A stretch of 64,000 bases of DNA from an uncultured Acidobacteriota bacterium (GCA_963741955.1 CAVUKB010000004.1:384001-448000); one strand, 5' to 3'; positions 47,419 through 61,233 are shown, numbered from the stretch's first letter. Translations and numbers: made by a program. Notes: generated from the letters alone by a model not told the origin.

Positions 47419-50400
47419 CTACTGCGCCGGCACGTACGTCGGATCCTGAGTCTGCATGTCGATCACGGAACCGTACGCAGTGATCTTCCCGCTGCCCGAT
47501 ACCACTCTCACGGAGATGCGCGCGTTGTAAGCGGTCGTCATTCCCATCGATTTGAGGACCTGCCCGAGCTGCGTGAATCCGTTCGCCGGCAGGTCGACCG
47601 TCATCTTCGCGGTCGTCAACGCGCCGGGGACGGTCGCCGAGATCTCGACCGTGACCGGGTTGCCGGTGACTTCAGTGATCCCGAGGTTCGTGCGGAAACG
47701 GTCCGACTGCTCGACCTGGAGGATCTGCAAAGGACGATCCCCCGCGGCGATCGCGTCATCCGGCATCACCGCCGGGATGAACTGGCCGTAGGTCCCGTTG
47801 GAAGTCTGGTTGTAGGTCCGCGCGGTGACCACCAGGCTGCTCGGTTCCGCGGTGGTGATCTGAACCGCACCGCCGGCACCGGGAGACTCGAAGAGCGACT
47901 GAACGACATTGTTCAGTGCCTTCTCCTTCCCCGCGTCGAGGATGACTTCCTTCGACACGGGAGCTCCTCCTCCGGTCGGATAGAGGGTCATGTCTGCAGT
48001 GACGCCGGACGCGCCACCATTGAAGATCCTCATGTCGGTCTGCCAGTTCGCGATCCCGTTCTTCAGATCCGCGACTCCCGGCACGACGTACTTCGTCTCG
48101 TGGATCGCGCCCGGGATCGCAGGTGCGATCAGGATCGGGTCACCGGTCTTCATGTCGATGGTCGATGCGTATGCGGTGACTTTTCCGGTGTCGGAGAGAA
48201 CCGAGACCTCGATCCGGCCGTCGTCGAGGGAGATCCCCTTCGTTGCGAGAACCTGATCGAGCTGGCGCTGCTCTCCCGGCTGGAGGTCTTCGGTGAACTC
48301 GGTCAGTGTCGTTCCCGAGGGGTCGAAGACCTTCACCAGCACAGTTGCCGGCTCGCCGGCCCCTTCGACCAACCCGAGGTTCGTGCGGTATGCGGATGAC
48401 TGAGCGATCTGCTGAAGGCTGATGGTGGTGCCCTTCGAGACCATGTCGGTGAAGCGCACTCCGGGGATGAACTGCCCGAACGTGCCGGCGGAGGTGTCGT
48501 TGTAGGTGCGGCTGGACGCGAGGGTGGTGAACCCGAGCGAGCTCGAGACGGATGCGGTACCTCCGGAGCTCGCAGAGACGGGGCGGACCTCGAGCACTCC
48601 GGTGGAGCTCTCGCCGGCGCTTCCCTTTCCGAACCAGTTGGCGAGAACGTCGTCGAGCGCGCCGGTTTGTCCCGGTGCGATGTCGAGCGTCGCGGAATAC
48701 CCGCTCGTGGTCCCATCCTGGCCGGAGGGAGTGAAGTAGAGCTGGTAGTGCATGGTATCGGTCGAAAGATTGCTCACCCGTACATCCGAGACCCACTTCG
48801 AGCTCACCCCGTCCGCATGCGCGACGGCCGGAATGATGATCGATTCCGCGGTCGGCGCGGTCTTCCCCGACGGCGTCGCGGGAGTGACGAGACTGAGAGA
48901 GATGGGAATGGTGGTGGTGCCGCCATCCATCGCCGAGATCGCGCCCGACTTCGCGGACGCGGTGGTGATGTTGACGGTCGAGGTGTTCGCTCCGGGGTCG
49001 AGCCGGCGCGGGTCCATCGAGATGGTGAGGGTCGCACCTTCAGGAGGGATGGTTCCGCTGGAGGGAGAGATGCTCAGCCACGGGTCGTCGCTGGTTGCGG
49101 TGAACGTTGCGGAGTCGGCGTTCTTCCCGGAGGAGCCGGAGCCGGGGAGGAAGATCTTCTGGGTGATCTTCTCCTGTTCGCCGAAGAGCGCGATGAACTT
49201 CTGATCCTTGCTGGTCGCATCCGGGGGCGGCGCGACCACCACCCGCACTGCGGCGGAGAACGCTCCGCGCTCGCCGCTGCAGTCGGCGATCGCACGGACG
49301 CGGTAGTACCAGGAGGTGGGACTCGTCGCGTCGTGCTGATACGAGGTCTGGAGGCCGGAGACGGTCCGGCTCGACGGATCGCTGAACGCCTCGTCGGATG
49401 ATTCCTGAATCTCGTAAGTCGTACTTCCGGGGAGAGGTGTCCACTGCACCGGATATCCGTCGCCGGAGAGGACGTGTCCCATGCTTCGAGCCCGGGGTTG
49501 GGACGGAGTGTCACAAGGAGCGGTGGGCAGCGCGGTGAATTGTGAGACGGGAGTGATCACGGATGCGCATCCGTCGATCATCGCCTCGACCGCCCAGAAG
49601 ATCCGGCCGGGCGGTACTTCGGTGACCAGCTGCGGGTCTGTGGTGGTGCCGAGGAGTGCGGGAAGGGCGCCGTTGACGGACGCATAGACGTTGTAAGCGC
49701 TGGCGCCGTCGACGGGAGTCCAGAGGAAGTCGGCGACGGGGCCGGTCTCCGCTCCGTCGGGCGGCGAGACCTGCATCGGCTGCGGGCGGATGCAGGCGGG
49801 ATCGATGGTCACCGTGCAGGTGCGAGAGTCGGATGTCACCGGTTTGCATCCAGGGAAGAGCGCGAAGGTGCGCCACCGGTACGATCCGGGCGGAAGGCGG
49901 CGGTCGGCAGCGGTCTGGGTGGTGATTCCGATCGGTGTCCACACGCCGTCGCCGCGCTGCGCCATCAACTCGTACGCGACTGCGCCGGAGACCGGATTCC
50001 AGGCGAAGCTCATCGTCGGATCGCTGGAGGTCCAGCCGTCGGGAGGCGAGGTGAGCTCCGGAGCCGGGTTCGCACAGTCGGACGATTCCGCGACCGTGAC
50101 TGCGACGGGTTGCGAGTGCGTGGCTGGACAGTCGCGGAAGAGCGCCTGAACGAACCACGTCAGTTTGCCCGGCTCGACGAGGACGGAAAGCGAGGTGTCC
50201 GGAGTCTGGCCTGCGACGCGCGGGACTCCGTTGGTGTAGACGATCCAGAGACGGTACGCGACGGCTCTGTTGACGGCACTCCAGGTGAATGTCGCGGGAG
50301 AATGGACCGTCGAACCAGCCGCAGGAGAGATCGGGAGAGGAGAAGCGTTGTCGCAGTGATCGACAGCGGCGAGGGTGAAACCCCGTTTCGCCGTTGTGAT

Positions 50401-51621
50401 CGGAGGACATCCGTTGAAGAACGCCTGGACGAACCAGCCGATGGTCCGGGCATCGAGCGGAACTTCGACGGCGGTTGCGCTGGTGGTTCGGATGTCCTCG
50501 AAGGGTCGCCCGTCGATGGAGACCCACAGCTTATAGGCGAACGCGCCGGGTGCGGCATTCCAGGAGAGCGTCACCGGAGAAGAGAGGCCGGTCGCACCTG
50601 CAGCGGGCGCGACGAGATCCGGTGCGCTGTTTCCGTTGCACGACGCCGACTCCGTCACCGTGAAGCTCGCGTGTGCGGAGACGACCGCGGGACAGCTCCT
50701 GAAGACCGCTTCGACCCACCAGGCGATGGTCCCGCTCGGGACGGGTGAGCTCAGCGTCGTCTCGCCGGACGTCTTGCCGAGAAGAGCCGGTGCGTTGCCG
50801 TTGACGGAAGCCCAGACGCGGTAGCCGATGGCATCCGGAACCGCGGACCATTGGAACGTCACCGGAGGCTGTACGTCCGATGTGCCGTCGGCCGGTGCGA
50901 GGAGCGTCGCAGCCGCGTGATCGCAATTCGGCGCCTCCGTCGTGAAATGCCCGAGCGTCGATCGTGTCGAAGGGCAGTCGGGGAACACTGCATCGACCCA
51001 CCAGACGATGTTTCCGACCGGGATGGTCGCGGTGAGGGAAGTCTCCGTCGTCTCGCCGGCCTTCTGGGGCAGTCCGGCGTCGACGGAAAACATCACCACG
51101 TACTTCGAGGCTCCGGAGACGGCGCGCCAGGAGAACGTGACGTCCGGATCGACGGTGGAGCCGGTCGCGGGTGAGGCGAGTGAAGGACCGTCGCTCGGAC
51201 AGTTGCTGGTGGTTTGCACCGTGAAGCGGGAGCAGAGACTGGAGCAGAATCCGGTGAAGGACGAGGCGGAGACCACGCGCCAGATGTACGTGTGTCCGGC
51301 TCTGATTGCGTTCGGATCGGGATTGAATGTGGTCTGAGTCCCGGGAACGGTGGCGACGGGCTGAATCGAGCCGCAGCTGCTCAGCGACGCATCGCCGAGA
51401 TAGATGTCGTAGTGATCGATTGCGCCTGGAGCCGGCGACCACTCGAGCTGGATCGTGCCGGAGACAGACGCTCCGTCGGCCGGGGACGTGGGTTGCGGAG
51501 GAGTGCATTGTCCGCTGGCGCTCCGGGCGATCCCGGAGAGGGAGAGAACCAGGACGCACGAAGCGATTCGGAGCAGTTTCCTGCTCGACGAAGAGACACG
51601 GGGCGTCGAAGACAAAGCCAT
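47419..51621 (-). CDS. Large secreted protein: 8 FN3/Ig-like repeats, BACON-like domain and duplicated C-terminal module
   Basis: GGAGGAG SD, signal peptide; repeats W-x2-V-x-GA-x2-Y...W-x-V-x-A-x4-C; SDDPWLSISPSSG; two copies of RTYN...GT(F/Y)GQFIP...RTNLG...AY(A/G)S.IDM.T.DP. Confidence 0.85.
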   Translation of the reverse strand: MALSSTPRVSSSSRKLLRIASCVLVLSLSGIARSASGQCTPPQPTSPADGASVSGTIQLEWSPAPGAIDHYDIYLGDASLSSCGSIQPVATVPGTQTTFNPDPNAIRAGHTYIWRVVSASSFTGFCSSLCSRFTVQTTSNCPSDGPSLASPATGSTVDPDVTFSWRAVSGASKYVVMFSVDAGLPQKAGETTETSLTATIPVGNIVWWVDAVFPDCPSTRSTLGHFTTEAPNCDHAAATLLAPADGTSDVQPPVTFQWSAVPDAIGYRVWASVNGNAPALLGKTSGETTLSSPVPSGTIAWWVEAVFRSCPAVVSAHASFTVTESASCNGNSAPDLVAPAAGATGLSSPVTLSWNAAPGAFAYKLWVSIDGRPFEDIRTTSATAVEVPLDARTIGWFVQAFFNGCPPITTAKRGFTLAAVDHCDNASPLPISPAAGSTVHSPATFTWSAVNRAVAYRLWIVYTNGVPRVAGQTPDTSLSVLVEPGKLTWFVQALFRDCPATHSQPVAVTVAESSDCANPAPELTSPPDGWTSSDPTMSFAWNPVSGAVAYELMAQRGDGVWTPIGITTQTAADRRLPPGSYRWRTFALFPGCKPVTSDSRTCTVTIDPACIRPQPMQVSPPDGAETGPVADFLWTPVDGASAYNVYASVNGALPALLGTTTDPQLVTEVPPGRIFWAVEAMIDGCASVITPVSQFTALPTAPCDTPSQPRARSMGHVLSGDGYPVQWTPLPGSTTYEIQESSDEAFSDPSSRTVSGLQTSYQHDATSPTSWYYRVRAIADCSGERGAFSAAVRVVVAPPPDATSKDQKFIALFGEQEKITQKIFLPGSGSSGKNADSATFTATSDDPWLSISPSSGTIPPEGATLTISMDPRRLDPGANTSTVNITTASAKSGAISAMDGGTTTIPISLSLVTPATPSGKTAPTAESIIIPAVAHADGVSSKWVSDVRVSNLSTDTMHYQLYFTPSGQDGTTSGYSATLDIAPGQTGALDDVLANWFGKGSAGESSTGVLEVRPVSASSGGTASVSSSLGFTTLASSRTYNDTSAGTFGQFIPGVRFTDMVSKGTTISLQQIAQSSAYRTNLGLVEGAGEPATVLVKVFDPSGTTLTEFTEDLQPGEQRQLDQVLATKGISLDDGRIEVSVLSDTGKVTAYASTIDMKTGDPILIAPAIPGAIHETKYVVPGVADLKNGIANWQTDMRIFNGGASGVTADMTLYPTGGGAPVSKEVILDAGKEKALNNVVQSLFESPGAGGAVQITTAEPSSLVVTARTYNQTSNGTYGQFIPAVMPDDAIAAGDRPLQILQVEQSDRFRTNLGITEVTGNPVTVEISATVPGALTTAKMTVDLPANGFTQLGQVLKSMGMTTAYNARISVRVVSGSGKITAYGSVIDMQTQDPTYVPAQ

Positions 51622-51861
51622 CGCTCCTCCAGGCCTCGCGAGGGAGGCAGACCAATCTCCGGTTCACGCCTCACGGCGCGATATCTCTTGGACGGAGATG
51701 GACCGAGTTTGCTTACCTGCCGGACCATTGTAGCGCCGGAGGGGCGACGGCCGCATCGCGTCGCCCGGTCGTTTCGCTGCCCCGAGGATTCGGCAGCATC
51801 CGGCGGCGTCCGGCCGAAAGGCAGCTCACGCTTCCCGAGAAGGGTCCGGCCGGGTGAAGAA

Positions 51862-52045
51862 GGGGTCAGGCCGTTTTTCCTCTGTCCGGTCGCGGGCGGG
51901 ATCGAAGCGCGGGGTCGGAGGGAGCGGGGTCAGGCCCGCTTTCGGCTCTCTTGTCCGGTCGAGCGGGGGGAGCGGGGTCGAGCGGGGGGAGCGGGGTCAG
52001 GCCCGTTTTCGTCTCCGGGGAGGGGCGGGGTCAGGCCCGTTCTCC
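51862..52045. repeat. G-rich direct repeats GGGGTCAGGCC(C)G x4
   Basis: Copies at 51862, 51926, 51993, 52027 with interspersed GAGCGGGG runs. Confidence 0.8.
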
Positions 52046-52084
52046 GCTCCGGCCCGGCGCCGGCGTCTCGGCATTCTGTCACGA

Positions 52085-52140
52085 ACTGGGAAATAGTGAG
52101 GATATGTGACCTTTATTGTCTACCAGTGTCCATGAATGTC
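52085..52140 (+). promoter_or_regulatory. Putative operator: six TG-anchored direct repeats with exact 10-bp phasing
   Basis: acTGGG, agTGAG, tgTGAC, atTGTC, agTGTC, aaTGTC with TG at 52087, 52097, 52107, 52117, 52127, 52137, in an AT-rich patch upstream of the HTH genes. Confidence 0.55.
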
Positions 52141-52186
52141 TTTACACGGCAGGCGGCTCCGCGTACGATCTCGTGACGGTCACGCG

Positions 52187-52936
52187 ATGCCCGATTCCGA
52201 GATCCTCAACATCCGCCAGCTTGCCGAGTACCTGATGGTGTCGGAAAAGACCGTCTACCGGATGCTCGACCGCAACCAGCTTCCCGCTTTGCGGGTGGGC
52301 ACCCAGTGGCGCTTCCGTCGTCAGGACATCGACGCCTGGCTCGAACAACAGGTGCAGCGCCCGGCGAGCGCCGGGAATCCGGAAACGCTCGACACGTTCG
52401 CTTCGTCCGAGCTCTCGATCCATCCGCTTCTCTCCGAGCAGAATGTCTGGCTCTCGATCGAAGCGGACTCACGCGACGCTCTTCTGGAGCGGATGCTCCG
52501 GGAGGGAGATCTCGACCCGGACGTGGATCGCGACCAGCTTCTCCGGTCGATCCTCGACCGCGAGGCGATCTGCTCGACGGCGCTCGTCGAGCAGGCGGCG
52601 TTTCCCCATCCCGTCGATCCCCGCCCGTTTCATTTTTCGCGAAAGAGGGTCCTGATCGCGACGCTGCGGGAACCGCTCGAGTTCAACGATCCTCACGGTC
52701 ACCAGCCGAGCGTGATCGCGATGATTCTCGCCCGCCGCATCCAGGGTCACATGCTCGCATTCTCCCGTGCGCTCAAGATCTTCGCCGACCCGGTGCTGAT
52801 CGATGCACTCCTCAGCGTTGGCACTCCTGCCGACGCGATCGAGGCGATCCGGATCGCCGAGGAGCCGCTCGACGCGATGAATGAAGGGGTGCCGGGAGAG
52901 GAGAAGGGAATGAGCCCGAAGGAGCCCGGATCGTGA
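52187..52936 (+). CDS. Excisionase-like HTH (HTH_17) - PTS EIIA (Fru/Mtl/Ntr-type) fusion regulator 1
   Basis: LNIRQLAEYLMVSEKTVYRM...LPALRVGTQWRFRRQDIDAW; ILDREAICST...AAFPHP. Confidence 0.87.
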   Translation: MPDSEILNIRQLAEYLMVSEKTVYRMLDRNQLPALRVGTQWRFRRQDIDAWLEQQVQRPASAGNPETLDTFASSELSIHPLLSEQNVWLSIEADSRDALLERMLREGDLDPDVDRDQLLRSILDREAICSTALVEQAAFPHPVDPRPFHFSRKRVLIATLREPLEFNDPHGHQPSVIAMILARRIQGHMLAFSRALKIFADPVLIDALLSVGTPADAIEAIRIAEEPLDAMNEGVPGEEKGMSPKEPGS

Positions 52937-53601
52937 AGCTCACCGTCGGCGAAGCGGCGACGATGCTCGGCACGACCGACCAGCGGATCTACGACTGGAT
53001 CGAGGACGAGAGCCTTCCGGCGCAAAAAATCCGAGGAGAGTACCGGATCAACCGTGCGGAGCTCCTGGAGTGGGCCACGGAGCGGGATCTCACGTTCGCC
53101 CCGCGGGGATTTCAGCGCCTCGCCAGCGAGAACGATGTTCCGTCGCTCTCCCGCGCCCTCCGCAGCGGCGGCATCCATCGCAGCGCAGGAGGGTCAGGTC
53201 TCCACGAGATCCTCGGGGGGGTCATCCGCGAGCTTCCTCTCGCCGGCGACGAGGACCGCGACGCGCTTCTGCAGGTGCTCGTTGCGCGCGAAACGCTCGG
53301 GACCACGCCGGTCGGAGAGGGAATCGCCATTCCTCACGTCCGTCATCCGATCGTCCTCGCTCCGGGAGAGGCCATCGCCGCGCTCGTGCTCCTCGACCAT
53401 CCGCTCGCTCTGCGAGGTCCCGACGGCGTCGCCGTCGACACGCTCTTCTTTCTCGTTTCGCCGACCGTGCACGCGCATCTCGCGACGCTCGCGCGGCTCG
53501 CATATCTCCTGCGGAAGCCGGAGCTGAAGCAACTCCTCCGGCGCCGTGCACCCGACAGCGAAATTCTCGCAGCCATGGAACGGCTGGAGGCTTCGGCATG
53601 A
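52933..53601 (+). CDS. Excisionase-like HTH - PTS EIIA fusion regulator 2
   Basis: LTVGEAATMLG...IYDWI...LPAQKIRGEYRINRAELLEW; ARETLGTTPVGEGIAIPH, HLATLARL. Confidence 0.88.
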   Translation: MKLTVGEAATMLGTTDQRIYDWIEDESLPAQKIRGEYRINRAELLEWATERDLTFAPRGFQRLASENDVPSLSRALRSGGIHRSAGGSGLHEILGGVIRELPLAGDEDRDALLQVLVARETLGTTPVGEGIAIPHVRHPIVLAPGEAIAALVLLDHPLALRGPDGVAVDTLFFLVSPTVHAHLATLARLAYLLRKPELKQLLRRRAPDSEILAAMERLEASA

Positions 53602-55535
53602 CCGCGGTGCTGATCCTCGCCGGGATCGTCCTCTGCGCCGTCAGCGGCATCCCCGCACTCTTCTCCACCCGCAGTGGCGCGCGCGCATCGACGATGCTCA
53701 TCGCGCTGGGCGGGATCGCCGGAATCGCCGGCAGCATCTTCGCGCTCCGCGGCGAGATCGGGATCATCAGCGAGCCGTGGGCGATTCCGGGTGGTGCGTT
53801 CCACCTCCGCGTCGACGCCCTCTCGGCGTTCTTCATCATCCCCGTCTTCGTCGTCGCCTTCTCCTGCTCGCTCTACAGCGAGAGAAGCTGGCCGCAGTCG
53901 GTGCGAGGTGCGGGCGTGCTGCGCCTCTTCTTCGGTCTGGTCGCCGGCGCGCTTGTCCTTCTGATGAGCGCCGCGAACGCCATCCTCTTTCTCGCTGCAT
54001 GGGAGATCGTCGCAGTCGGTGCTTTCTTCCTCATCGGGGCGGGAAGCGAATCGGACGAGGTCCGGAAGGCGTCGTGGCTCTACCTCGCGGCGAGCCACAT
54101 CGCGACACTCGCTCTCTTCACCCTTTTCTCCGTGATCCACGCCGCGACGGGGAGCTGGGAGCTCGCAACGATCCACACCGCGGCGCACACCGGAATCCTC
54201 CCCATCGTCTTCGCCCTCGCCGTGACCGGATTCCTGATCAAGGCCGGCGCGATGCCGTTTCACGTCTGGCTCCCCGGCGCGCATGCCGGAGGTCCGAGCC
54301 ACGTCTCGGCGCTGATGTCCGGCGTGGTAATCAAGATGGGGATCTACGGACTGGTGCGCGTCCTCTCGCTGTTCGACACCACCCCCGGCTGGTTCGGATC
54401 GACCATCCTTCTGATCGGAATCGTCTCCAGCATCCTCGGCGTCGCGTTCGCGCTCGCGCAGCACGACTTCAAACGCCTTCTCGCATACCACAGCATCGAG
54501 AACATCGGGATCATCCTGATCGGGATCGGCACGGGCTTGATCGGAAAATCGATCGGAAGCCCCGCGCTCACGATACTCGGTTTCGCCGGGGGTCTGCTTC
54601 ACGTCTGGAACCACGGGATGTTCAAGTCGCTCCTCTTCCTCGGCGCGGGATCCGCGGTGCACTCGAGCGGCACCCGTGAGATCGACCGGATGGGAGGGCT
54701 CGCACACCGGATGCCGTGGACCGCGGGGGCGTTTCTCCTCGGGGCGGTGGCGATCTCCGGTCTTCCGCCACTGAACGGTTTCGTCAGCGAATGGCTCCTC
54801 TATCTGTCGAGTTTCACCGGGGCGATCGATGGGCGTTCGCTCCTCGTTTTCGCGGTCGCTCCCGCGCTCGCGATCACCGGCGCGCTCGCCGTCGCCTGTT
54901 TCGTGAAGGCGTTCGGAGTCGTCTTTCTCGGCGCGCCGCGTACGGCCGCTGCGGCTGCGGCGCACGAGTCGCCCCGCTCGATGCTCGTCGCGATGGCGCC
55001 GCTCGCCGTCGCATGCATCGCGATCGGACTTTTCCCGCAGCTCGTCGTTCCTGCGCTCGCCCCGGCGGTCGCAGTCGTTGCAGGGCACGCTCTTTCGGCC
55101 GATCTCGGTGCGTCGCTCCTTCCGCTGCAACTCGCTGCGATCGCGCTCGCGATCGCGCTCGGCGCCGGTTTCCTCCTCCTCCGCAAGCGGGTCAAGAATG
55201 CCCGACGGTCGGTCACCTGGGACTGCGGCTACGTGGCGCCGACTGCACGGATGCAGTACACGGCATCGTCGTTCGCGGCCACTCTGGTGAGTCTCTTCGC
55301 GTGGGTTCTCCGTCCCGTCAGCCACGCTCCCGGCAACCTTCCGCTCTTTCCCTCCGACCGCCGGTTCGAGAGTCACGTGCCCGACGTGGTGCTGGAAGGA
55401 GTGGTCGGTCCCGTGGTCTCGCGCGTCTCCCGGATCTCGCGGGTCGGCCGCGCGATCCAGAGCGGACGCCTTCACGCCTATCTCCTGTACGTGGGAATCA
55501 CCCTGGTGGTGCTCCTGATCTGGAGCTTCCGATGA
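53598..55535 (+). CDS. Hydrogenase-4 subunit B-like proton-translocating subunit (Ehr complex, HyfB/NuoL-like)
   Basis: AWE, KAGAMPFHVWLPGAH, SALMSGVVIKMGIYG, KRLLAYHSIENIG, PPLNGFVSEW, WDCGY. Confidence 0.9.
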   Translation: MTAVLILAGIVLCAVSGIPALFSTRSGARASTMLIALGGIAGIAGSIFALRGEIGIISEPWAIPGGAFHLRVDALSAFFIIPVFVVAFSCSLYSERSWPQSVRGAGVLRLFFGLVAGALVLLMSAANAILFLAAWEIVAVGAFFLIGAGSESDEVRKASWLYLAASHIATLALFTLFSVIHAATGSWELATIHTAAHTGILPIVFALAVTGFLIKAGAMPFHVWLPGAHAGGPSHVSALMSGVVIKMGIYGLVRVLSLFDTTPGWFGSTILLIGIVSSILGVAFALAQHDFKRLLAYHSIENIGIILIGIGTGLIGKSIGSPALTILGFAGGLLHVWNHGMFKSLLFLGAGSAVHSSGTREIDRMGGLAHRMPWTAGAFLLGAVAISGLPPLNGFVSEWLLYLSSFTGAIDGRSLLVFAVAPALAITGALAVACFVKAFGVVFLGAPRTAAAAAAHESPRSMLVAMAPLAVACIAIGLFPQLVVPALAPAVAVVAGHALSADLGASLLPLQLAAIALAIALGAGFLLLRKRVKNARRSVTWDCGYVAPTARMQYTASSFAATLVSLFAWVLRPVSHAPGNLPLFPSDRRFESHVPDVVLEGVVGPVVSRVSRISRVGRAIQSGRLHAYLLYVGITLVVLLIWSFR

Positions 55536-56443
55536 ACGTTCTCGCCGCCGTGATCCTGAATCTGGCCGTGGTGCTGGTGGTCTCTCCGCTGATGCTCTCG
55601 GTGATCAACCGGACCAAGGCGATGGTGGCCGGGCGCACGGGGCAGCCGCTCCTCCAGCCGTATTTCGAGATCGCGAAGCAACTGCGCAAGGGAACCGTCC
55701 TCAGCGAGACCACCACGTTCGTCTTCCTTCTCGGGCCGGTCATCTCGTTCGTAGTGGTCCTCTTCGCCGCGCTCCTTCTTCCCCTGGGCGGGGTCAGAGC
55801 TCCAGTGGCCTTCAGTGGTGACGTGATTCTCTTCGTCTACCTCTTCGGGCTGGGCCGCTTCTTCACCACCGCCGCCGCGCTCGACACCGGTTCTCCGTTC
55901 GAGGGGATGGGTGCGGCCCGCGAGGCGACGTTCGCCTTCATGGCCGAGCCGGCGATCTTTCTCGGAATGCTCGCCCTCGCACGGATCTCGAAGACGCTCT
56001 CCCTTTCGTCCATGCTCTCGGTCTCCGGCGCGGAGCTCCGCACGGCGAGCGCCGCGGTGGTTCTGGTCGTCGCGAGCTGGTTCATCGTGCTGCTGGTCGA
56101 GAACTCGCGTGTTCCGTTCGACGACCCGAACACCCATCTCGAGCTGACCATGATCCACGAGGTGATGGTGCTCGACCACAGCGGCCCGGCGCTCGGTCTG
56201 ATCCTCTGGGGGAGCGCGATGAAGCTCTTCGTCTTCGCCGCCCTGATCGTGCACGTGGTCCTTCCGCGCACCGGCTCCACGGTCTTCGATGCCGCCGCAT
56301 CGGCCGGCGCGACGCTTCTTCTCGCGGTGGTGGTGGGCCTGGTCGAGAGCGGGATGGCGCGTCTCCGGCTCGTCCGCATCCCGCAGCTCCTGATCACTGC
56401 GAGCCTCGCTGCGACGTTCGCCGTAGTCCTGGTGGTGAGGTGA
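55532..56443 (+). CDS. HyfC/NuoH-like membrane subunit (Ehr complex)
   Basis: GRTGQPLLQPY, LDTGSPFEGMGAARE, ENSRVPFDDPNTHLELTMIHE. Confidence 0.9.
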   Translation: MNVLAAVILNLAVVLVVSPLMLSVINRTKAMVAGRTGQPLLQPYFEIAKQLRKGTVLSETTTFVFLLGPVISFVVVLFAALLLPLGGVRAPVAFSGDVILFVYLFGLGRFFTTAAALDTGSPFEGMGAAREATFAFMAEPAIFLGMLALARISKTLSLSSMLSVSGAELRTASAAVVLVVASWFIVLLVENSRVPFDDPNTHLELTMIHEVMVLDHSGPALGLILWGSAMKLFVFAALIVHVVLPRTGSTVFDAAASAGATLLLAVVVGLVESGMARLRLVRIPQLLITASLAATFAVVLVVR

Positions 56444-56445
56444 AC

Positions 56446-57081
56446 ATGAGCCACGCCGTCGACGGAATCCTGATCCTCCTCCTCCTGACGAACTTCTTCA
56501 TTCTCGGGACGGCGTCGCTCCGCGCCGCGATCCGGGCGGTTGCGATTCAGGGTCTGATCCTCGGGGTTCTCTCCCTCTGGGGCGAGAGCGAGCTGACTGT
56601 GCGTCTCGCCCTCTTCGTCGCTGCGACCGTGGCGGTCAAGGCGATCCTGATTCCGGGACTGCTCCAGAAAGCGATCCGTGACGTCCACATCCGGCACGAG
56701 GTGGAGCCGTTTCTCGGTTTCGTCCCATCGCTCTTTCTCTGTGCCGTCGGGACGGGGCTGGCAATCCTCTTCGCCGACCGTCTGCCGCTCGCGACGATGC
56801 ACCGCGGATCGCTCTTCGTTCCCGCTGCGCTCGCGACCGTCTTCGCGGGCTTCCTCGTGCTCACCACCCGGAGGAAGGCGATCTCTCAGGTCACCGGGTA
56901 TCTGGTCCTGGAGAACGGCGTGTACGTCTTCGGACTCCTCCTCTATCAGGCGATGATCATCGAGGTCGGCATCCTCCTCGACCTCCTGGTGGGCATCTTC
57001 ATCATGGGTATCGTCCTGAACCACATCCGTCGCGAGTTCTCGTCGCTCGACACCTCGCGCATGTCGAAGCTGAAAGAGTAG
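56446..57081 (+). CDS. HyfE-like membrane subunit (Ehr complex)
   Basis: AIQG, KAILIP, SQVTGYLVLENG, EVGILLD. Confidence 0.88.
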   Translation: MSHAVDGILILLLLTNFFILGTASLRAAIRAVAIQGLILGVLSLWGESELTVRLALFVAATVAVKAILIPGLLQKAIRDVHIRHEVEPFLGFVPSLFLCAVGTGLAILFADRLPLATMHRGSLFVPAALATVFAGFLVLTTRRKAISQVTGYLVLENGVYVFGLLLYQAMIIEVGILLDLLVGIFIMGIVLNHIRREFSSLDTSRMSKLKE

Positions 57082-57083
57082 AC

Positions 57084-58514
57084 ATGACCCTCTGGCTCAT
57101 TCTCGCACCACTGATCGGCGCCCTTCTGGCGTTCGTCGTTCCTTCGGAGCGGCTGCGCCCGTCGATCGTCGCCGTCGCGGCCGTGGCGCATACGGCGCTC
57201 ACCGTCGGGGTGATCCGGAGCGGTTCGCACGGAAGTCTGATGGTCGAGTGGCTGCGTCTCGATGCGCTCGGCACTCTGGTCCTGCTGGTGATCAGCACAC
57301 TCTTTCTCGTCTGCGCGATCTACGCCGTAGGCTATCTCCGGAGCCGATCCGACCGGCCGAACCGGGTCTTCTGTACGTCGCTCCTTCTCTTCCTGGTCAC
57401 CACCACCGTCCTCACCATGGCCCAGCAGCTGACGGTGATGTGGGTGGCGATGGAAGCGACGACGCTCTCCACCGCGCTCCTTCTCTACTTCAACCAGAAC
57501 GAGCGATCACTCGAGGCCACCTGGAAGTACCTGATGATCGGATCCCTCGGCATCGCGTTCGCGCTGCTGGGCACCCTCTTCATCGCATATGCGACGTTCC
57601 TCGGGTTCGGCGACTCGAATCTCGACTATCCGCTCCTCGTCCATCGCGCTGCCGGACTCTCCGTTCCGTGGCTGCGTGCGGGTTTCGTCTTCCTCCTGGT
57701 CGGTTACGGGACCAAGCTCGGTCTCGCACCGCTCCACACCTGGAAGCCGGATGCTTATGGCGAAGCGCCGGGGGTGGTCGGTGCTCTCCTGGCCGGAGGG
57801 ATGACCAGCGCCGCGCTACTCGCTCTCCTTCGTGTCTATCGGATCGTCGATGCCTCCGGAGACGGCGTGTTCGCCCGAGGGCTGTTCGTCACTCTCGGGC
57901 TCCTTTCGATCGCCACGGCTGTGGTGATGATGGTCGGCCAGCGCGACCTCAAGCGTCTCCTCGCGTACTCCAGCGTGGAGCACGTCGGCGTGATCGCGGT
58001 CGGGATCGGGCTCGGCGGAGTGGGGATCTTCGGCGCACTTCTCCACATGGTGAACTACGCGATGACCAAGGGTGTGCTCTTCCTCTCTGCGGGGAACATC
58101 CATCGTGGCTACCGCAGCAAGAGAGTAGGGGAGGTGACCGGCGCATTGATCCGGCTTCCCGTTTCGGCGGGTCTCTTCCTCGCCGGGTTCTTCGCCATCA
58201 CCGGTTCACCGCCGTTCGGGCCGTTCGTGAGCGAGCTGACGATCCTCAACGCCGCGACCGGGCAGCACCGCGTCGCAGTCGCCGCGATCTACGTCACTCT
58301 CCTCGTCCTCGTCTTCGTCGCCATGGGCGCTTCGCTCATGCCGATGGTCGAAGGCGCGCCACCGGTTGACGGCGAGCCGCCCGTGCTGCGCGAGAAGTCG
58401 CTCGAGACGGCACCGCTCTTCGTCGCACTCGCACTGGTTCTGATGATGGGGATCTGGATTCCCGCCCCGCTTCAGAAACTTCTCCACGACGCGGCGAAGC
58501 TCCTGGGAGGATAG
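57084..58514 (+). CDS. HyfF-like proton-translocating subunit (Ehr complex)
   Basis: WVAMEATTL, SLEATWKY, GYGTKLGLAPLHTWKPDAYGEAP, KRLLAYSSVEH, PPFGPFVSE. Confidence 0.9.
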   Translation: MTLWLILAPLIGALLAFVVPSERLRPSIVAVAAVAHTALTVGVIRSGSHGSLMVEWLRLDALGTLVLLVISTLFLVCAIYAVGYLRSRSDRPNRVFCTSLLLFLVTTTVLTMAQQLTVMWVAMEATTLSTALLLYFNQNERSLEATWKYLMIGSLGIAFALLGTLFIAYATFLGFGDSNLDYPLLVHRAAGLSVPWLRAGFVFLLVGYGTKLGLAPLHTWKPDAYGEAPGVVGALLAGGMTSAALLALLRVYRIVDASGDGVFARGLFVTLGLLSIATAVVMMVGQRDLKRLLAYSSVEHVGVIAVGIGLGGVGIFGALLHMVNYAMTKGVLFLSAGNIHRGYRSKRVGEVTGALIRLPVSAGLFLAGFFAITGSPPFGPFVSELTILNAATGQHRVAVAAIYVTLLVLVFVAMGASLMPMVEGAPPVDGEPPVLREKSLETAPLFVALALVLMMGIWIPAPLQKLLHDAAKLLGG

Positions 58515-60020
58515 ATGGCCACCGATCGGATACGACTCAGAAACGGAGAGGCAGCGCGGCTCGATGACATTCCTCGGCTTCCGATCGCGGAGCTCCGTCG
58601 TGGCGTGATCGAGAGCGTCAACGAAGGGGAGAGGATCGCTTCGCTCTTTGCATACCAACGAAGCGATGGACTGGAGCTCGTCGCGGTTCTCGCCAACGAC
58701 GCCACCGGTCGCCTCGGCATCTTCCGCGCCGGATTGCCCGACCTGTACGAGTCGATCACCTCCGAGTGTCCGCAGGCGCAGGCATTCGAGCGCGAGATCG
58801 CGGAGCAGTTCGGCGTGCGTCCTTCCGGTCATCCGTGGCTCAAGCCGGTCCGCTATCACGATTCGTGGCGCCCGGGTCACTCCGTGTTCGACGAGGGTAC
58901 GGTTCCGGCCGAGACGAAGCTCTTCCGCGTCGAAGGCGACGAGATCCACGAAGTCGCGGTCGGCCCGGTCCACGCCGGAGTGATCGAGCCGGGACATTTT
59001 CGTTTTCAGTGTCACGGCGAGACGGTCTTCCATCTGGAGATCGCGCTCGGGTACCAGCACCGCGGAATCGAGCGAAGCCTGATCGGCGGTCCATCGAAGC
59101 GATCGTTCCATTACCTCGAGACCGTTGCCGGGGACACCACCATCGGACATTCGGTCGCATTCGCACAAGCCATGGAGTCGCTCGCGGGGGTCAGGGCACC
59201 GGTCCGTGCGGACTCGCTTCGCGGAATCGCTCTCGAGCTCGAGCGCCTGGCGAACCACACCGGAGACCTCGGCGCGCTGAGCGGCGACGTCGCGTTTCTT
59301 CCCACCGCGTCATTCTGCGGGCGAATCCGAGGAGATTTCCTGAACCTGACCGCAGAGCTATGCGGATCGCGTTTCGGGCGCGGGATGGTGGTGCCCGGCG
59401 GGGTACGCTTCGATCTCGCGAAGGAGCAGATGGAAGGATTCGCGTCGCGGCTCGCTGCTGCGACGCGGGATGTAGTGGAAGCGGGGAAACTTCTGTGGAA
59501 CGCGCCGACGGTGATCGAGCGGTTCGAGAACACCGGTGAGGTGGCGGCGGAAGAATGCGATGCAATGGGTCTGGTCGGAGTGGCGGCGAGGGCATGCGGA
59601 AGATCGATCGACGTGAGGCACGATTTTCCGTCCGGCATCTACCGCTTCGCGCACGTTCCGGTGATGACCGCACACGTCGGCGACGTGAACGCGCGCGCGT
59701 TCGTCCGGTTCATGGAGATCCAGCGCTCGTCGGCCTTCATCGCGCGTCAGCTCGACGCGCTCCCTTCGACTCCGCTTCGGACCACGGTCGGCGCGCTGCG
59801 CCCGGAGATGATCGTCGTGTCGATGACCGAAGGATGGAGAGGCGAGATCTGTCACGTGGCGATCACCGACCAGAACGGGACGTTCGCGCGATACAAGATC
59901 ACCGATCCGTCGTTTCACAACTGGTTCGGTCTGGCCCTCGCACTGCGCGAGGGTCAGATCTCCGATTTCCCGCTCTGCAACAAGAGCTTCAATCTCTCGT
60001 ACTGCGGTCACGATCTCTGA
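58515..60020 (+). CDS. HyfG/HycE-like large subunit (NuoCD-like) lacking NiFe-binding CxxC motifs (EhrL-like)
   Basis: FEREIAE, VGPVHAGVIEPGHFRF, GYQHRGIE, EGWRGE. The L1 position reads ETVAGDTTIGH and the L2 position reads NKSFNLSYCGHDL. Confidence 0.9.
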   Translation: MATDRIRLRNGEAARLDDIPRLPIAELRRGVIESVNEGERIASLFAYQRSDGLELVAVLANDATGRLGIFRAGLPDLYESITSECPQAQAFEREIAEQFGVRPSGHPWLKPVRYHDSWRPGHSVFDEGTVPAETKLFRVEGDEIHEVAVGPVHAGVIEPGHFRFQCHGETVFHLEIALGYQHRGIERSLIGGPSKRSFHYLETVAGDTTIGHSVAFAQAMESLAGVRAPVRADSLRGIALELERLANHTGDLGALSGDVAFLPTASFCGRIRGDFLNLTAELCGSRFGRGMVVPGGVRFDLAKEQMEGFASRLAAATRDVVEAGKLLWNAPTVIERFENTGEVAAEECDAMGLVGVAARACGRSIDVRHDFPSGIYRFAHVPVMTAHVGDVNARAFVRFMEIQRSSAFIARQLDALPSTPLRTTVGALRPEMIVVSMTEGWRGEICHVAITDQNGTFARYKITDPSFHNWFGLALALREGQISDFPLCNKSFNLSYCGHDL

Positions 60021-60029
60021 GGGCGCCCG

Positions 60030-60797
60030 ATGCTGAAATCACTTCTCGCACGCGCCCGGCAGGGCCACCGCACTACGGCGTTCCCGGAGGGAGACGCGCC
60101 CTCTCTGCCGGCGCGCTTCAGAGGCCGCCCGGAGATCGACGTCTCGAAGTGTCCGGACGGATGCCGCGAATGCGCAGAGGCGTGCCCCGAAGAGGCGATT
60201 CTCCCGGGCGACGGCGGCGTGCGCGTCGACCTCGGGCGTTGCACCTTCTGTCCCCTGTGCGAAGAGGCGTGCCCCGAGGGGGCGATCTCGTTCAGCCGGG
60301 ATTACCGGCTCGCGACATCCGGCCGGGAAGATCTGCTCGTCGGGCCGGACGAAGAGCTGCGGCTCGCATCGGCTCTCGATGGTGAGCTGCGACGACTGTA
60401 CGGGCGTTCTCTCGATCTTCGTGTGGTGAGTGCGGGCGATTGCAATGCGTGCGCGGCCGACGTCAACGTCCTCACCACCATCGGCTGGGACATCGGACGT
60501 TTCGGGATCCGCATCGTCGCCTCGCCGCGCCACGCGGACGGGCTGCTGGTGCTCGGACCGGTCACCCGGAACATGGAGCTCGCGCTGCGGAAGACGTTCG
60601 ACGCGATCCCCGACCCGAAGCTCGTGATCGCCGTTGGGGCCTGCGCCATCTCGGGCGGGATCTACGCCGGCCACGACGAGACGCGCGGGATCCCGGCGGA
60701 CATCCCGGTCGATCTCTACATCCCCGGCTGCCCTCCACACCCTCTGACGATTCTGGACGGGCTCCTCCGGCTGCTCGGGCGCATCCCGTCGCGCTGA
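60030..60797 (+). CDS. Fused 2[4Fe-4S] ferredoxin + NuoB/HyfI-like small subunit (EhrS-like)
   Basis: CPDGCRECAEACP and CTFCPLCEEACP, then GDCNAC, SPRHAD, GACAISGG, PGCPP. Confidence 0.9.
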   Translation: MLKSLLARARQGHRTTAFPEGDAPSLPARFRGRPEIDVSKCPDGCRECAEACPEEAILPGDGGVRVDLGRCTFCPLCEEACPEGAISFSRDYRLATSGREDLLVGPDEELRLASALDGELRRLYGRSLDLRVVSAGDCNACAADVNVLTTIGWDIGRFGIRIVASPRHADGLLVLGPVTRNMELALRKTFDAIPDPKLVIAVGACAISGGIYAGHDETRGIPADIPVDLYIPGCPPHPLTILDGLLRLLGRIPSR

Positions 60798-60798
60798 A

Positions 60799-61233
60799 GC
60801 CCCTTGATGGGGGCTCGCATTGAATTCAGAGCAGGCGGACCCAGGACCTTCGCGCCCGGCTAAACAAAGTGACGCCCTTCGGGCTCCGGGGAGCAGGAGC
60901 GTCCGCAAATCGCGCAAATGAAATGGTCATCGAAGCCACGGGCCGCTGAGTCGCGGCACTTGTTACTGCGGAAGACGGGCGTCAGCGCTAAGGTAAATTG
61001 CGCGAGAGGGAGTGCCGCCCCCTGACGGGGGCTCCCGCTGGAGTCCGCACGCGCGGATCCGGGCCCTTACGGGCCCGGCTAAACAAAGTGACGCCCTTCG
61101 GGCTCCGGGGAGAGACGCGACGCGCGCTCTGGCTATGGCAAATCGCGCAAATGGAGTCGTTCTCGAAGCCACGGTCCTCTCCGTCACCGCACCCATTCCT
61201 GTCGAACGCGCCCGAACGGGCTATGGCAAATCG
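60799..61233. repeat. Composite intergenic repeat: two GCCCC.TGA.GGGGGC...GGCTAAACAAAGTGACGCCCTTCGGGC elements plus GCAAATCGCGCAAATG units
   Basis: Elements start at 60799 and 61017; GCAAAT anchors at 60905, 61138, 61226. Confidence 0.85.

Follow-up and report, generated by a model that had tools for sequence, protein, structure and literature searches.

The closest described counterparts of the gene cluster analyzed here are the Ehr complexes, for which loss of the NiFe-ligating cysteines is the defining trait in the parts of the literature that introduce them (PMC6349859, PMC10284858), and whose function is stated as unknown both there and in the Ehr-related passages of two further papers (PMC7894505, PMC13194489). 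As far as the published subunit descriptions go, the Ehr complex of Geobacter sulfurreducens combines NuoL/HyfB-, HycD/HyfC-, HyfE-, and antiporter-like membrane subunits with a NiFe-less large subunit and a small subunit (PMC7894505, PMC13194489). Passages of the same two papers report all of its subunits as more abundant on formate (PMC7894505) and, in the more recent account, treat Ehr as non-functional (PMC13194489). Here, we describe an eight-gene cluster (g1 to g8) from an uncultured Acidobacteriota bacterium, located in a 64,000-nucleotide (nt) stretch of DNA, the window (G000:C4:384001-448000), from a 5.4-Mb genome that is 99% complete; all coordinates count from the first letter of this window. 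By the same subunit descriptions, g3 to g8 hold the gene set of G. sulfurreducens GSU0739-0745 (PMC7894505, PMC13194489), but with one HyfB-like gene instead of two (EhrA-1 and EhrA-2), and they are preceded by two genes, g1 and g2, that encode fusions of a helix-turn-helix (HTH) domain to an enzyme IIA (EIIA) domain of the phosphotransferase system (PTS). No mention of a regulator for the Geobacter Ehr was found in the literature searched.

Several regulatory systems share individual features with g1 and g2. The structural genes are homologous to those of Escherichia coli hydrogenase-4 (hyf) and formate hydrogenlyase (hyc), operons that carry their own regulators (HyfR, FhlA, and HycA). Those operons, however, encode true NiFe hydrogenases under formate-sensing sigma-54 activators, whereas the operon in the window lacks the NiFe cysteines and has a different family of regulators. 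PRD activators of the MtlR, LicR, and LevR type are transcription factors with an EIIA(Mtl/Fru)-like domain under the control of PTS phosphorylation; in contrast, g1 and g2 lack a PRD, are much smaller, and have an HTH of the Xis/MerR type. PtsN (EIIA-Ntr), the best match of the g2 sensor domain in both sequence and fold, with both histidines present, is an EIIA for signaling and not transport, but it is a stand-alone protein that acts by protein binding, while g1 and g2 join their EIIA domains to a DNA-binding domain and head what appears to be their target operon. BldC and Xis fall within the same HTH class by Pfam (HTH_17, excisionase family), but are single-domain proteins lacking a sensor, in contrast to the two-domain g1 and g2. 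For BldC, the account of its DNA binding describes a MerR-like winged HTH that multimerizes cooperatively on direct repeats, in head-to-tail orientation and in variable numbers (PMC5859096).

Based on the data presented below, we favor, with moderate confidence, a reading in which g1 and g2 are autoregulated, probably PTS-controlled transcription factors that act on direct repeats and set the expression of ehr. The Ehr complex, the EIIA domain, and the HTH_17 domain are already known; what is new relative to the literature searched is the fusion as a dedicated cross-phylum Ehr regulator, its conserved direct-repeat operator, and a second paralog specific to one lineage. A link of Ehr with EIIA or PtsN was not found in any of the full texts searched, which did not include the founding papers (Coppi 2005 and Marreiros 2013) or supplements.

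Regulator genes and their linkage to ehr

The eight open reading frames (ORFs) are co-oriented on the + strand and tightly packed between 52187 and 60797, with 4-nt overlaps at four junctions (GTGA at 52933, ATGA at 53598, ATGA at 55532, and GTGA at 56440) and gaps of 2, 0, and 9 nt at the others. These coordinates confirm the overlapping or nearly abutting stop and start codons noticed in an earlier, sequence-only reading of this DNA and, on this spacing, there is no room for internal promoters between g1 and g8. The same reading had the system begin at 52087, which is not a gene start, as that frame contains stops; the longest ORF of g1 begins at 52136 (266 aa), and the ATG at 52187 is the start supported by an alignment of 15 g1 relatives.

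The first two genes, g1 (52187..52936, + strand, 249 aa) and g2 (52933..53601, + strand, 222 aa), encode an HTH_17 domain followed by a PTS_EIIA_2 domain, divergent in g1 and PtsN-like in g2 according to Pfam together with a family alignment (g1) or NCBIfam (g2). In both proteins, the two domains scored above the curated Pfam cut-offs, with 62.1 bits (g1) and 48.2 bits (g2) for HTH_17 (PF12728; cut-off 27) and 53.4 and 57.1 bits for PTS_EIIA_2 (PF00359), and the excisionase-type model TIGR01764 scored 60.4 and 44.6 bits against a cut-off of 28.8. The HTH_17 of g1 covers residues 7-55, counted from 52187. These domain calls bear out the earlier claim of two paralogous HTH-EIIA fusions; the proteins are collinear with 22% identity and, by sequence comparison, are deep paralogs. 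Neither contains a PRD, EIIB-like, Mga, or sigma-54 domain (Pfam, E <= 0.01), and neither matches BldC chains in sequence, while the HTH of g1 weakly matches phage Xis (4j2n, E 0.011). At E <= 1e-10, 197 proteins belong to the g1 family; each of the best 120 listed contains both Pfam domains, and those that are named come from Thermoanaerobaculia or Acidobacteria. For both regulators, named relatives derive from metagenome-assembled genomes (MAGs) of Thermoanaerobaculia and other Acidobacteriota.

We surveyed gene neighborhoods in two sets. The first is a phylum sample of 201 genomes, which includes three unpublished ones (G024, G049, and G152), none of them among the regulator- or Ehr-bearing genomes cited here. 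A full-length g2-like gene was present in 19 of the 201, counting the source genome, and in 17 of these 19 it lay 5.6-7.6 kb upstream of an EhrL-like gene (encoding the Ehr large subunit), with both genes on one contig and one strand; G104 and G140 carry them on separate contigs. The second set consists of the best 80 of at least 555 g2 relatives found by a scan with the g2 alignment, using one genome per species. The records of these 80 loci carry at least seven phylum-level labels, namely Acidobacteriota, Verrucomicrobiota, Planctomycetota (including Brocadiia), Geobacteraceae and other delta-proteobacterial labels, Pseudomonadota, Omnitrophota, and Victivallales (Lentisphaerota-type). A HyfB-like gene directly follows the g2-like gene in 69 of the 74 loci with at least 1.5 kb of downstream sequence, and an EhrL-like gene occurs within 10 kb downstream on the same strand in 57 of the 62 with at least 7.5 kb. 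Loss of this linkage in other genomes had been named as what would refute the sequence-only reading, and in the survey the linkage held in these 57 of 62 informative loci from several phyla. The loci include two from Geobacteraceae MAGs (L040 and L063), where a g2-like gene precedes an Ehr operon whose EhrL has 51-57% identity to that of the window.

Among the exceptions, L013 retains only a remnant of ehrS (the Ehr small-subunit gene), while in a Fibrobacteres-labelled MAG (L087:9989-12733) the g2-like gene is followed by a Na+/H+ exchanger with TrkA_C, and in Singulisphaera sp. (L061:10001-12266) by a beta-carbonic anhydrase. Of other proteins with HTH_17 and EIIA_2 in the phylum, the one seen, in G143, has an unrelated context (an RF-1 domain protein and Sel1 repeats), and the link to Ehr therefore belongs to the g2 subfamily and not to the domain architecture itself.

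The tandem arrangement of two regulators, by comparison, did not generalize. A g1-like gene precedes g2 in only 15 of 75 loci, plus two loci cut by a contig end, all with Acidobacteriota-type labels, and g1-like genes occur in three of the 201 genomes of the phylum sample. Additional g2-type copies are found near ehr in L091, L046, and L048 (also L058 and L059), with Planctomycetota and Verrucomicrobiota labels. The copies in L091, L046, and L048 indicate that a second regulator arose more than once and suggest independent regulator duplications outside of Acidobacteriota. Overall, we consider it very likely that the HTH_17-EIIA proteins are regulators of ehr.

TGTCY direct repeats at the regulator promoters

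Upstream of g1, a pattern search found a candidate operator on the + strand at 52117..52141, a triple direct repeat with a 10-bp period (TGTCT-N5-TGTCC-N5-TGTCT). Its last unit abuts and overlaps the -35 hexamer of a sigma-70-like promoter match (TTTACA-17-TACGAT, 52141..52169, + strand), which is a consensus match only (9/12 in a consensus scan) and ends approximately 18 nt before the g1 ATG. In the whole 5.4-Mb genome, TGTCY-N5-TGTCY-N5-TGTCY matched once, at the g1 promoter, and the reversed control gave 0 matches. In 49 of 77 loci (15/15 with tandem regulators and 34/62 with a single one), the 150 nt preceding the first regulator gene contain a period-10 TGTCY pair, compared to 0 loci for the reversed pattern and 2 for the minus strand. 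On both strands of the 80 loci there were 59 strict matches, 53 of which fell on the + strand in the 1 kb preceding the g2-like gene, with two more at the same promoters in inverted orientation. The motif persists across phyla while the flanking sequence diverges. As a sequence element, the repeat at the promoter supports a transcription-factor role, and the TGTCY repeats are likely to be the operator of the HTH_17 regulators.

The position of the repeats differs between the two types of loci. At the g1 promoter, as in L013, L016, L018, and L021, three units lie just upstream of and overlapping the -35 hexamer, and the arrangement TGTCC-TTTACA is common to these four tandem loci. In 23 of the 34 motif-bearing single loci, TTGAC is located exactly 28 nt upstream of the first repeat; assuming a 17-nt spacer, the final base of the -10 hexamer is also where the first repeat begins, and the pair spans the start site. 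This layout, of the repressor type, points to repression in most single-regulator loci.

We propose that g2, and in the g1-bearing lineage also g1, would be one-component transcription factors dedicated to the ehr operon they head, with the Xis/MerR-like winged HTH binding the 10-bp-spaced TGTCY units, probably head to tail like BldC and Xis. Since the regulators would thereby bind the promoter of their own operon, the operon would be autoregulated. Two to three units at a 10-bp period, one helical turn, fit the BldC binding mode as a prediction only; the BldC repeat (AATT-N4-C) differs from TGTCY, and with two domains and no sequence match g1 and g2 fall outside the BldC family, so that the comparison would be one of working principle at most.

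Other elements were also seen in this region. A perfect 13-nt palindrome, CGTGACGGTCACG, lies at 52172-52184, between the -10 match and the g1 start, and was not seen in related tandem loci. In two Thermoanaerobaculia-labelled loci, short tandem units precede the regulator in place of TGTCY (TTTCTGG in L017 and the CAGAAAG type in L027). No known RNA elements were detected in 51550-52300 at E <= 1. Four copies of GGGGTCAGGCCCG(Y)T(Y)TC are present upstream of g1 at 51862-52049 (motif span 51862-52039). We rejected the GGGGTCAGGCCCG repeats as an operator, given that they are REP-like (resembling repetitive extragenic palindromes) and are not upstream of the regulator in related loci. Genome-wide, the motif is confined to contig C4, in clusters that include G000:C4:615920-624645 (L095) and that flank an IS200/Y1-transposase-like ORF (L095:10639-11763), dnaE, a gene for a large PAS/GAF histidine kinase, and a thiolase-like gene. 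The array looks like a REP/RAYT (REP-associated tyrosine transposase)-like system with very few copies.

Proposed input to the EIIA domains and rival explanations

The sensor domain of g2 matches PtsN chains 3urr, 4gqx, 2a0j, and 1a6j of the PDB by sequence (best E 1.2e-11), and the best fold match of its AlphaFold2 model (pLDDT 84.5, pTM 0.79) is also PtsN, with a template modeling (TM) score of 0.72-0.76 on the target. Against the PtsN equivalog model (TIGR01419 / NF008145), g2 scored 56.6 bits, with a cut-off of 138.7; falling below this cut-off and fused to an HTH, g1 and g2 are, as far as their sequences indicate, relatives of PtsN and not PtsN itself. The sequence-only reading held that both regulators keep the phospho-acceptor His, and it is indeed present in AAFPH of g1 and IAIPH of g2. 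The codon for g2 His135 (GIAIPH; 53335..53337, + strand) aligns to the GxAIPH of solved PtsN, and that for the second conserved His, His182 (53476-53478, + strand), to the AHL of PtsN; by the family alignment, the presumed phospho-acceptor of g1 is His141 (codon at 52607..52609, + strand). His135 is kept in 18 of 19 g2 homologs, the remaining one having Gln, His182 in 19 of 19, and His141 of g1 in 15 of 15 relatives.

The source genome also encodes the proteins that could deliver a phosphoryl group. Contig C5 carries a row of HprK, EIIA-Man, HPr, and EI genes, near which a RapZ-like ORF and, upstream, sigma-54 C-terminus-like and HPF-like ORFs were identified by eye. No match to PTS_EIIC was found in the genome, and this PTS therefore looks purely regulatory. 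The HPr contains the motifs GLHARAA and AKS, which we take to be the His15 and Ser46 sites. HPr is present in all 19 g2-bearing genomes, versus 157 of 201 genomes overall in the phylum sample, and in 5 of 5 g2 carriers from other phyla, while G091 and G103, which are Ehr-bearing and regulator-less, have no HPr match. We propose that the C-terminal PtsN-like EIIA would be the input, its conserved His being phosphorylated by HPr~P from EI, HPr, and HprK/P, and that the amount of Ehr complex would in this way be tied to phosphoenolpyruvate (PEP)/energy status, perhaps also to cation status. The balance tips slightly toward control of ehr by PTS phosphorylation. From the sequences, we infer DNA binding to the repeats, EIIA phosphorylation and its sign, and co-transcription.

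The possibility of a cation signal comes from other members of the domain class. Only four EIIA_2 domains occur in the genome, those of g1 and g2 and two others. The third is C-terminal in a 582-aa protein with a KdpD N-terminal sensor domain (G000:C5 ~546 kb, L004:1471-3216, - strand), and the other is a 272-aa protein (G000:C5 ~1181 kb, L001:1129-1944, - strand) whose gene adjoins a same-strand gene for a P-type cation-transporting ATPase. This KdpD fusion, the P-type ATPase neighbor, and the neighbors in L087 and L061 hint, from few cases, at a connection of this EIIA class to cation or pH homeostasis. The hint echoes a link known for PtsN, which is tied to K+ homeostasis via KdpD and Trk; E. 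coli encodes KdpD and PtsN separately, and the two proteins bind one another.

The strongest alternative is that g1 and g2 are ehr-specific transcription factors whose EIIA-like domain senses a small ligand, an ion, or a protein partner, the His being kept for fold or ligand. In favor of such sensing, the g1 family lacks a conserved second His and g1 scores weakly against the PtsN and FruA models; moreover, the same fold forms a regulatory domain that works independently of phosphorylation in the SLC4/Band 3 anion exchangers, which are among the weaker fold matches, and one of the 19 g2 homologs has replaced the phospho-acceptor with Gln. However, retention of the GxAIPH His in 18/19 g2 and 15/15 g1 homologs, and the presence of HPr in all 24 carriers examined, with no HPr match in the regulator-less Ehr genomes G091 and G103, run counter to this explanation, and we regard it as unlikely.

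It is also possible, with a still smaller probability, that the regulators act post-translationally, with the EIIA domain docking on Ehr and the HTH serving for autoregulation only or going unused. PtsN docks on TrkA or KdpD, and the 4-nt overlaps with the structural genes would, through translational coupling, fix the stoichiometry of a docked protein. The other two EIIA_2 domains are likewise tied to ion transport, through the KdpD fusion and the P-type cation ATPase, and the Ehr-less g2-like genes precede a Na+/H+ exchanger with TrkA_C and a beta-carbonic anhydrase. Nevertheless, HTH_17 is strongly conserved in both families, a matching conserved repeat lies at the promoters, and approximately half of the Ehr operons sampled lack such a regulator. 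That the HTH_17 genes are mobile-element (excisionase-like) remnants beside ehr by chance is extremely improbable, for although HTH_17 is an excisionase-type fold, the g1 HTH weakly matches phage Xis, and a REP-like array lies just upstream, the linkage and gene order are kept across phyla, no integrase or phage genes are nearby, and the REP-like repeat is absent from related loci.

Several observations weigh against our favored reading of g1 and g2 as PTS-controlled regulators of ehr. A strong EhrL match (E <= 1e-120) was obtained in 36 genomes of the phylum sample, 17 of which lack a g2-like gene (E <= 1e-10), and the regulator is therefore dispensable for Ehr. No g1 or g2 match was found upstream of ehr in the stretches fetched from these regulator-less genomes, four of these stretches offering too little upstream DNA for a judgment owing to contig ends or gene order, nor did Pfam reveal a shared substitute regulator among 57 upstream ORFs from 12 of the 17 g2-less Ehr operons; the neighbors there, which are unrelated to one another, include DUF1275, asparaginase, MFS, DUF4382, an enolase-type enzyme, and a CoA ligase. 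Ehr is thus often accompanied by the regulator, which is an accessory and no subunit of the complex. In addition, related genomes are not independent, so that the linkage and motif counts overstate the number of separate events, and the strict repeat pair is missing in 28 of 77 loci, including all three Geobacteraceae loci, which differ from the window in this respect. Relaxed period-10 pairs are present in several of the loci that have no strict match, but not in the three Geobacteraceae loci, L061, or L087. On the side of the sensor, the second active-site position is variable in the g1 family (QGH, QGQ, or QGY), with His in the g1 of the window itself, and g1 scored only 25.5 bits with the PtsN model, far from PtsN. 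The EI is ~600 aa, a length that fits PtsI and not the GAF-bearing PtsP, and a nitrogen signal is therefore not indicated. Finally, co-transcription of g1-g8 is deduced from the overlapping codons; no RNA dataset covering 52000-61000 was found, the stretch being matched only by DNA contigs from one soil-metagenome study.

A heteromer of g1 and g2 is a tentative idea that we consider less probable than not; a prediction of the complex from the alignments of the two proteins scored 0.00 relative to a mark of 0.32 and counts neither way. A more far-reaching interpretation, which is unlikely to be correct in its entirety, would make the HTH_17-EIIA(Ntr-like) proteins a widespread, undescribed class of PTS-read one-component regulators. 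On 10-bp repeats, these proteins would assemble head to tail into BldC-like filaments, the phosphorylation of the EIIA His would control this assembly, and Ehr would be a PTS-controlled machine for cation/pH homeostasis and energy conservation instead of a dead hydrogenase. In Thermoanaerobaculia-type Acidobacteriota, g1 would join a hetero-filament on the third repeat, and the move of the operator from the -10/start site to the -35 could turn a repressor into an activator.

The Ehr complex, flanking sequence, and implications

The six structural genes follow g2 on the + strand. The antiporter-like membrane subunits are g3 (ehrA-like, HyfB/NuoL-type; 53598..55535, 645 aa) and g6 (ehrD-like, HyfF/NuoN-type; 57084..58514, 476 aa), both with the Pfam domain Proton_antipo_M, and between them lie g4 (ehrB-like, HyfC/HycD/NuoH-type membrane subunit with NADHdh; 55532..56443, 303 aa) and g5 (ehrC-like, HyfE-type membrane subunit; 56440..57081, 213 aa). 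They are followed by g7 (ehrL; 58515..60020, 501 aa), a NuoC plus NuoD/HycE-like large subunit with Complex1_30kDa and Complex1_49kDa, and g8 (ehrS; 60030..60797, 255 aa), a fusion of a HyfH/NuoI-like ferredoxin and a NuoB-like module with Fer4 and Oxidored_q6 (E 7.8e-26). In NCBIfam, g3, g5, g6, and g8 are nearest to hydrogenase-4 subunits B, E, F, and H, respectively, with E 3.4e-168 for g3 against the subunit B model, below that model's cut-off, and E 2.3e-23 for g5 against the hydrogenase 4 membrane subunit.

The best solved relative of EhrL is HycE of E. coli formate hydrogenlyase (7z0s_E, E 2.9e-41). In this alignment, CGIC is replaced by AGDT and DPC by NLS, and the fourth NiFe ligand position, reached by extending the alignment by eye, is Gly; EhrL therefore has none of the four canonical NiFe cysteines, in agreement with the nickel-less hydrogenase-4-like complex of the sequence-only reading. 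The sequence AGDTTIGH (59127..59150, + strand) takes the place of the hydrogenase CGxCxxxH motif, and the C-terminal FPLCNKSFNLSYCGHDL (59967..60017, + strand) that of DPCxxCxxH/R, EhrL ending here with no C-terminal extension. Across 51 EhrL sequences from related loci, G206, D207, and H212 of ETxAGDTTIGH do not vary and FPLCNKSFNLSYCGHDL is nearly invariant (C488 in 48/51, C497 in 51/51, and H499 in 46/51), indicating that the active-site region has not decayed. Two EhrL positions are Ile and Gly in an alignment with Thermus Nqo4, where they correspond to what are presumably the quinone-site residues His38 and Tyr87. On these alignments, the EhrL pocket resembles a canonical quinone site as little as it does a NiFe site. 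Contig C10 carries HypD, and the lack of NiFe maturation genes can therefore not serve as an argument for a nickel-free complex.

The product of ehrS has exactly 12 Cys, eight of which (41, 45, 48, 52, 71, 74, 77, and 81) form the 2x[4Fe-4S] pattern of the ferredoxin module, while the other four (138, 141, 205, and 234) occur in the CxxC...C...CPP order of the NuoB-like module, from which we infer that they bind a [4Fe-4S] cluster. The fusion was matched as a single piece in most related loci.

Directly 3' of the ehrS stop codon, sequence inspection and RNAfold identified a GC-rich hairpin (60798..60815, + strand), a possible operon end with no T-run behind it, which was not called by a terminator scan. 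The spacer downstream of ehrS, 500 nt in length, contains a duplicated module, with 43-nt copies at 60851-60893 and 61070-61112 (98% alike) and 94-nt copies at 60905-60998 and 61138-61231 (71% alike). Positions 61059-61104 match the full Rfam model Acido-Lenti-1 (RF01687) with 25.8 bits (E 0.0011), below the gathering score of 37. The upstream flank is a divergent 1400-aa ORF (47419-51621, - strand) with weak BACON_2 and GH85_C matches, and downstream lies an amine-oxidase-like flavoprotein gene. The flanking genes were rejected as members of the system, as tblastn found no matches to them in the 80 related loci.

Among the relatives of complex I and the group 4 hydrogenases, Ehr complexes are common. 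The near-invariant, non-NiFe motif set of EhrL across phyla, together with a dedicated, conserved regulator that has a conserved operator, argues that Ehr is functional. The regulator is also an experimental handle, in that the PTS state as input and the TGTCY operator could show when cells make Ehr. If the reading of g1 and g2 as PTS-controlled transcription factors is true, they would represent a minimal wiring from the PTS to transcription that does without PRD domains, and the recurring pairing of regulator and operon provides a testable lead to the purpose of Ehr.

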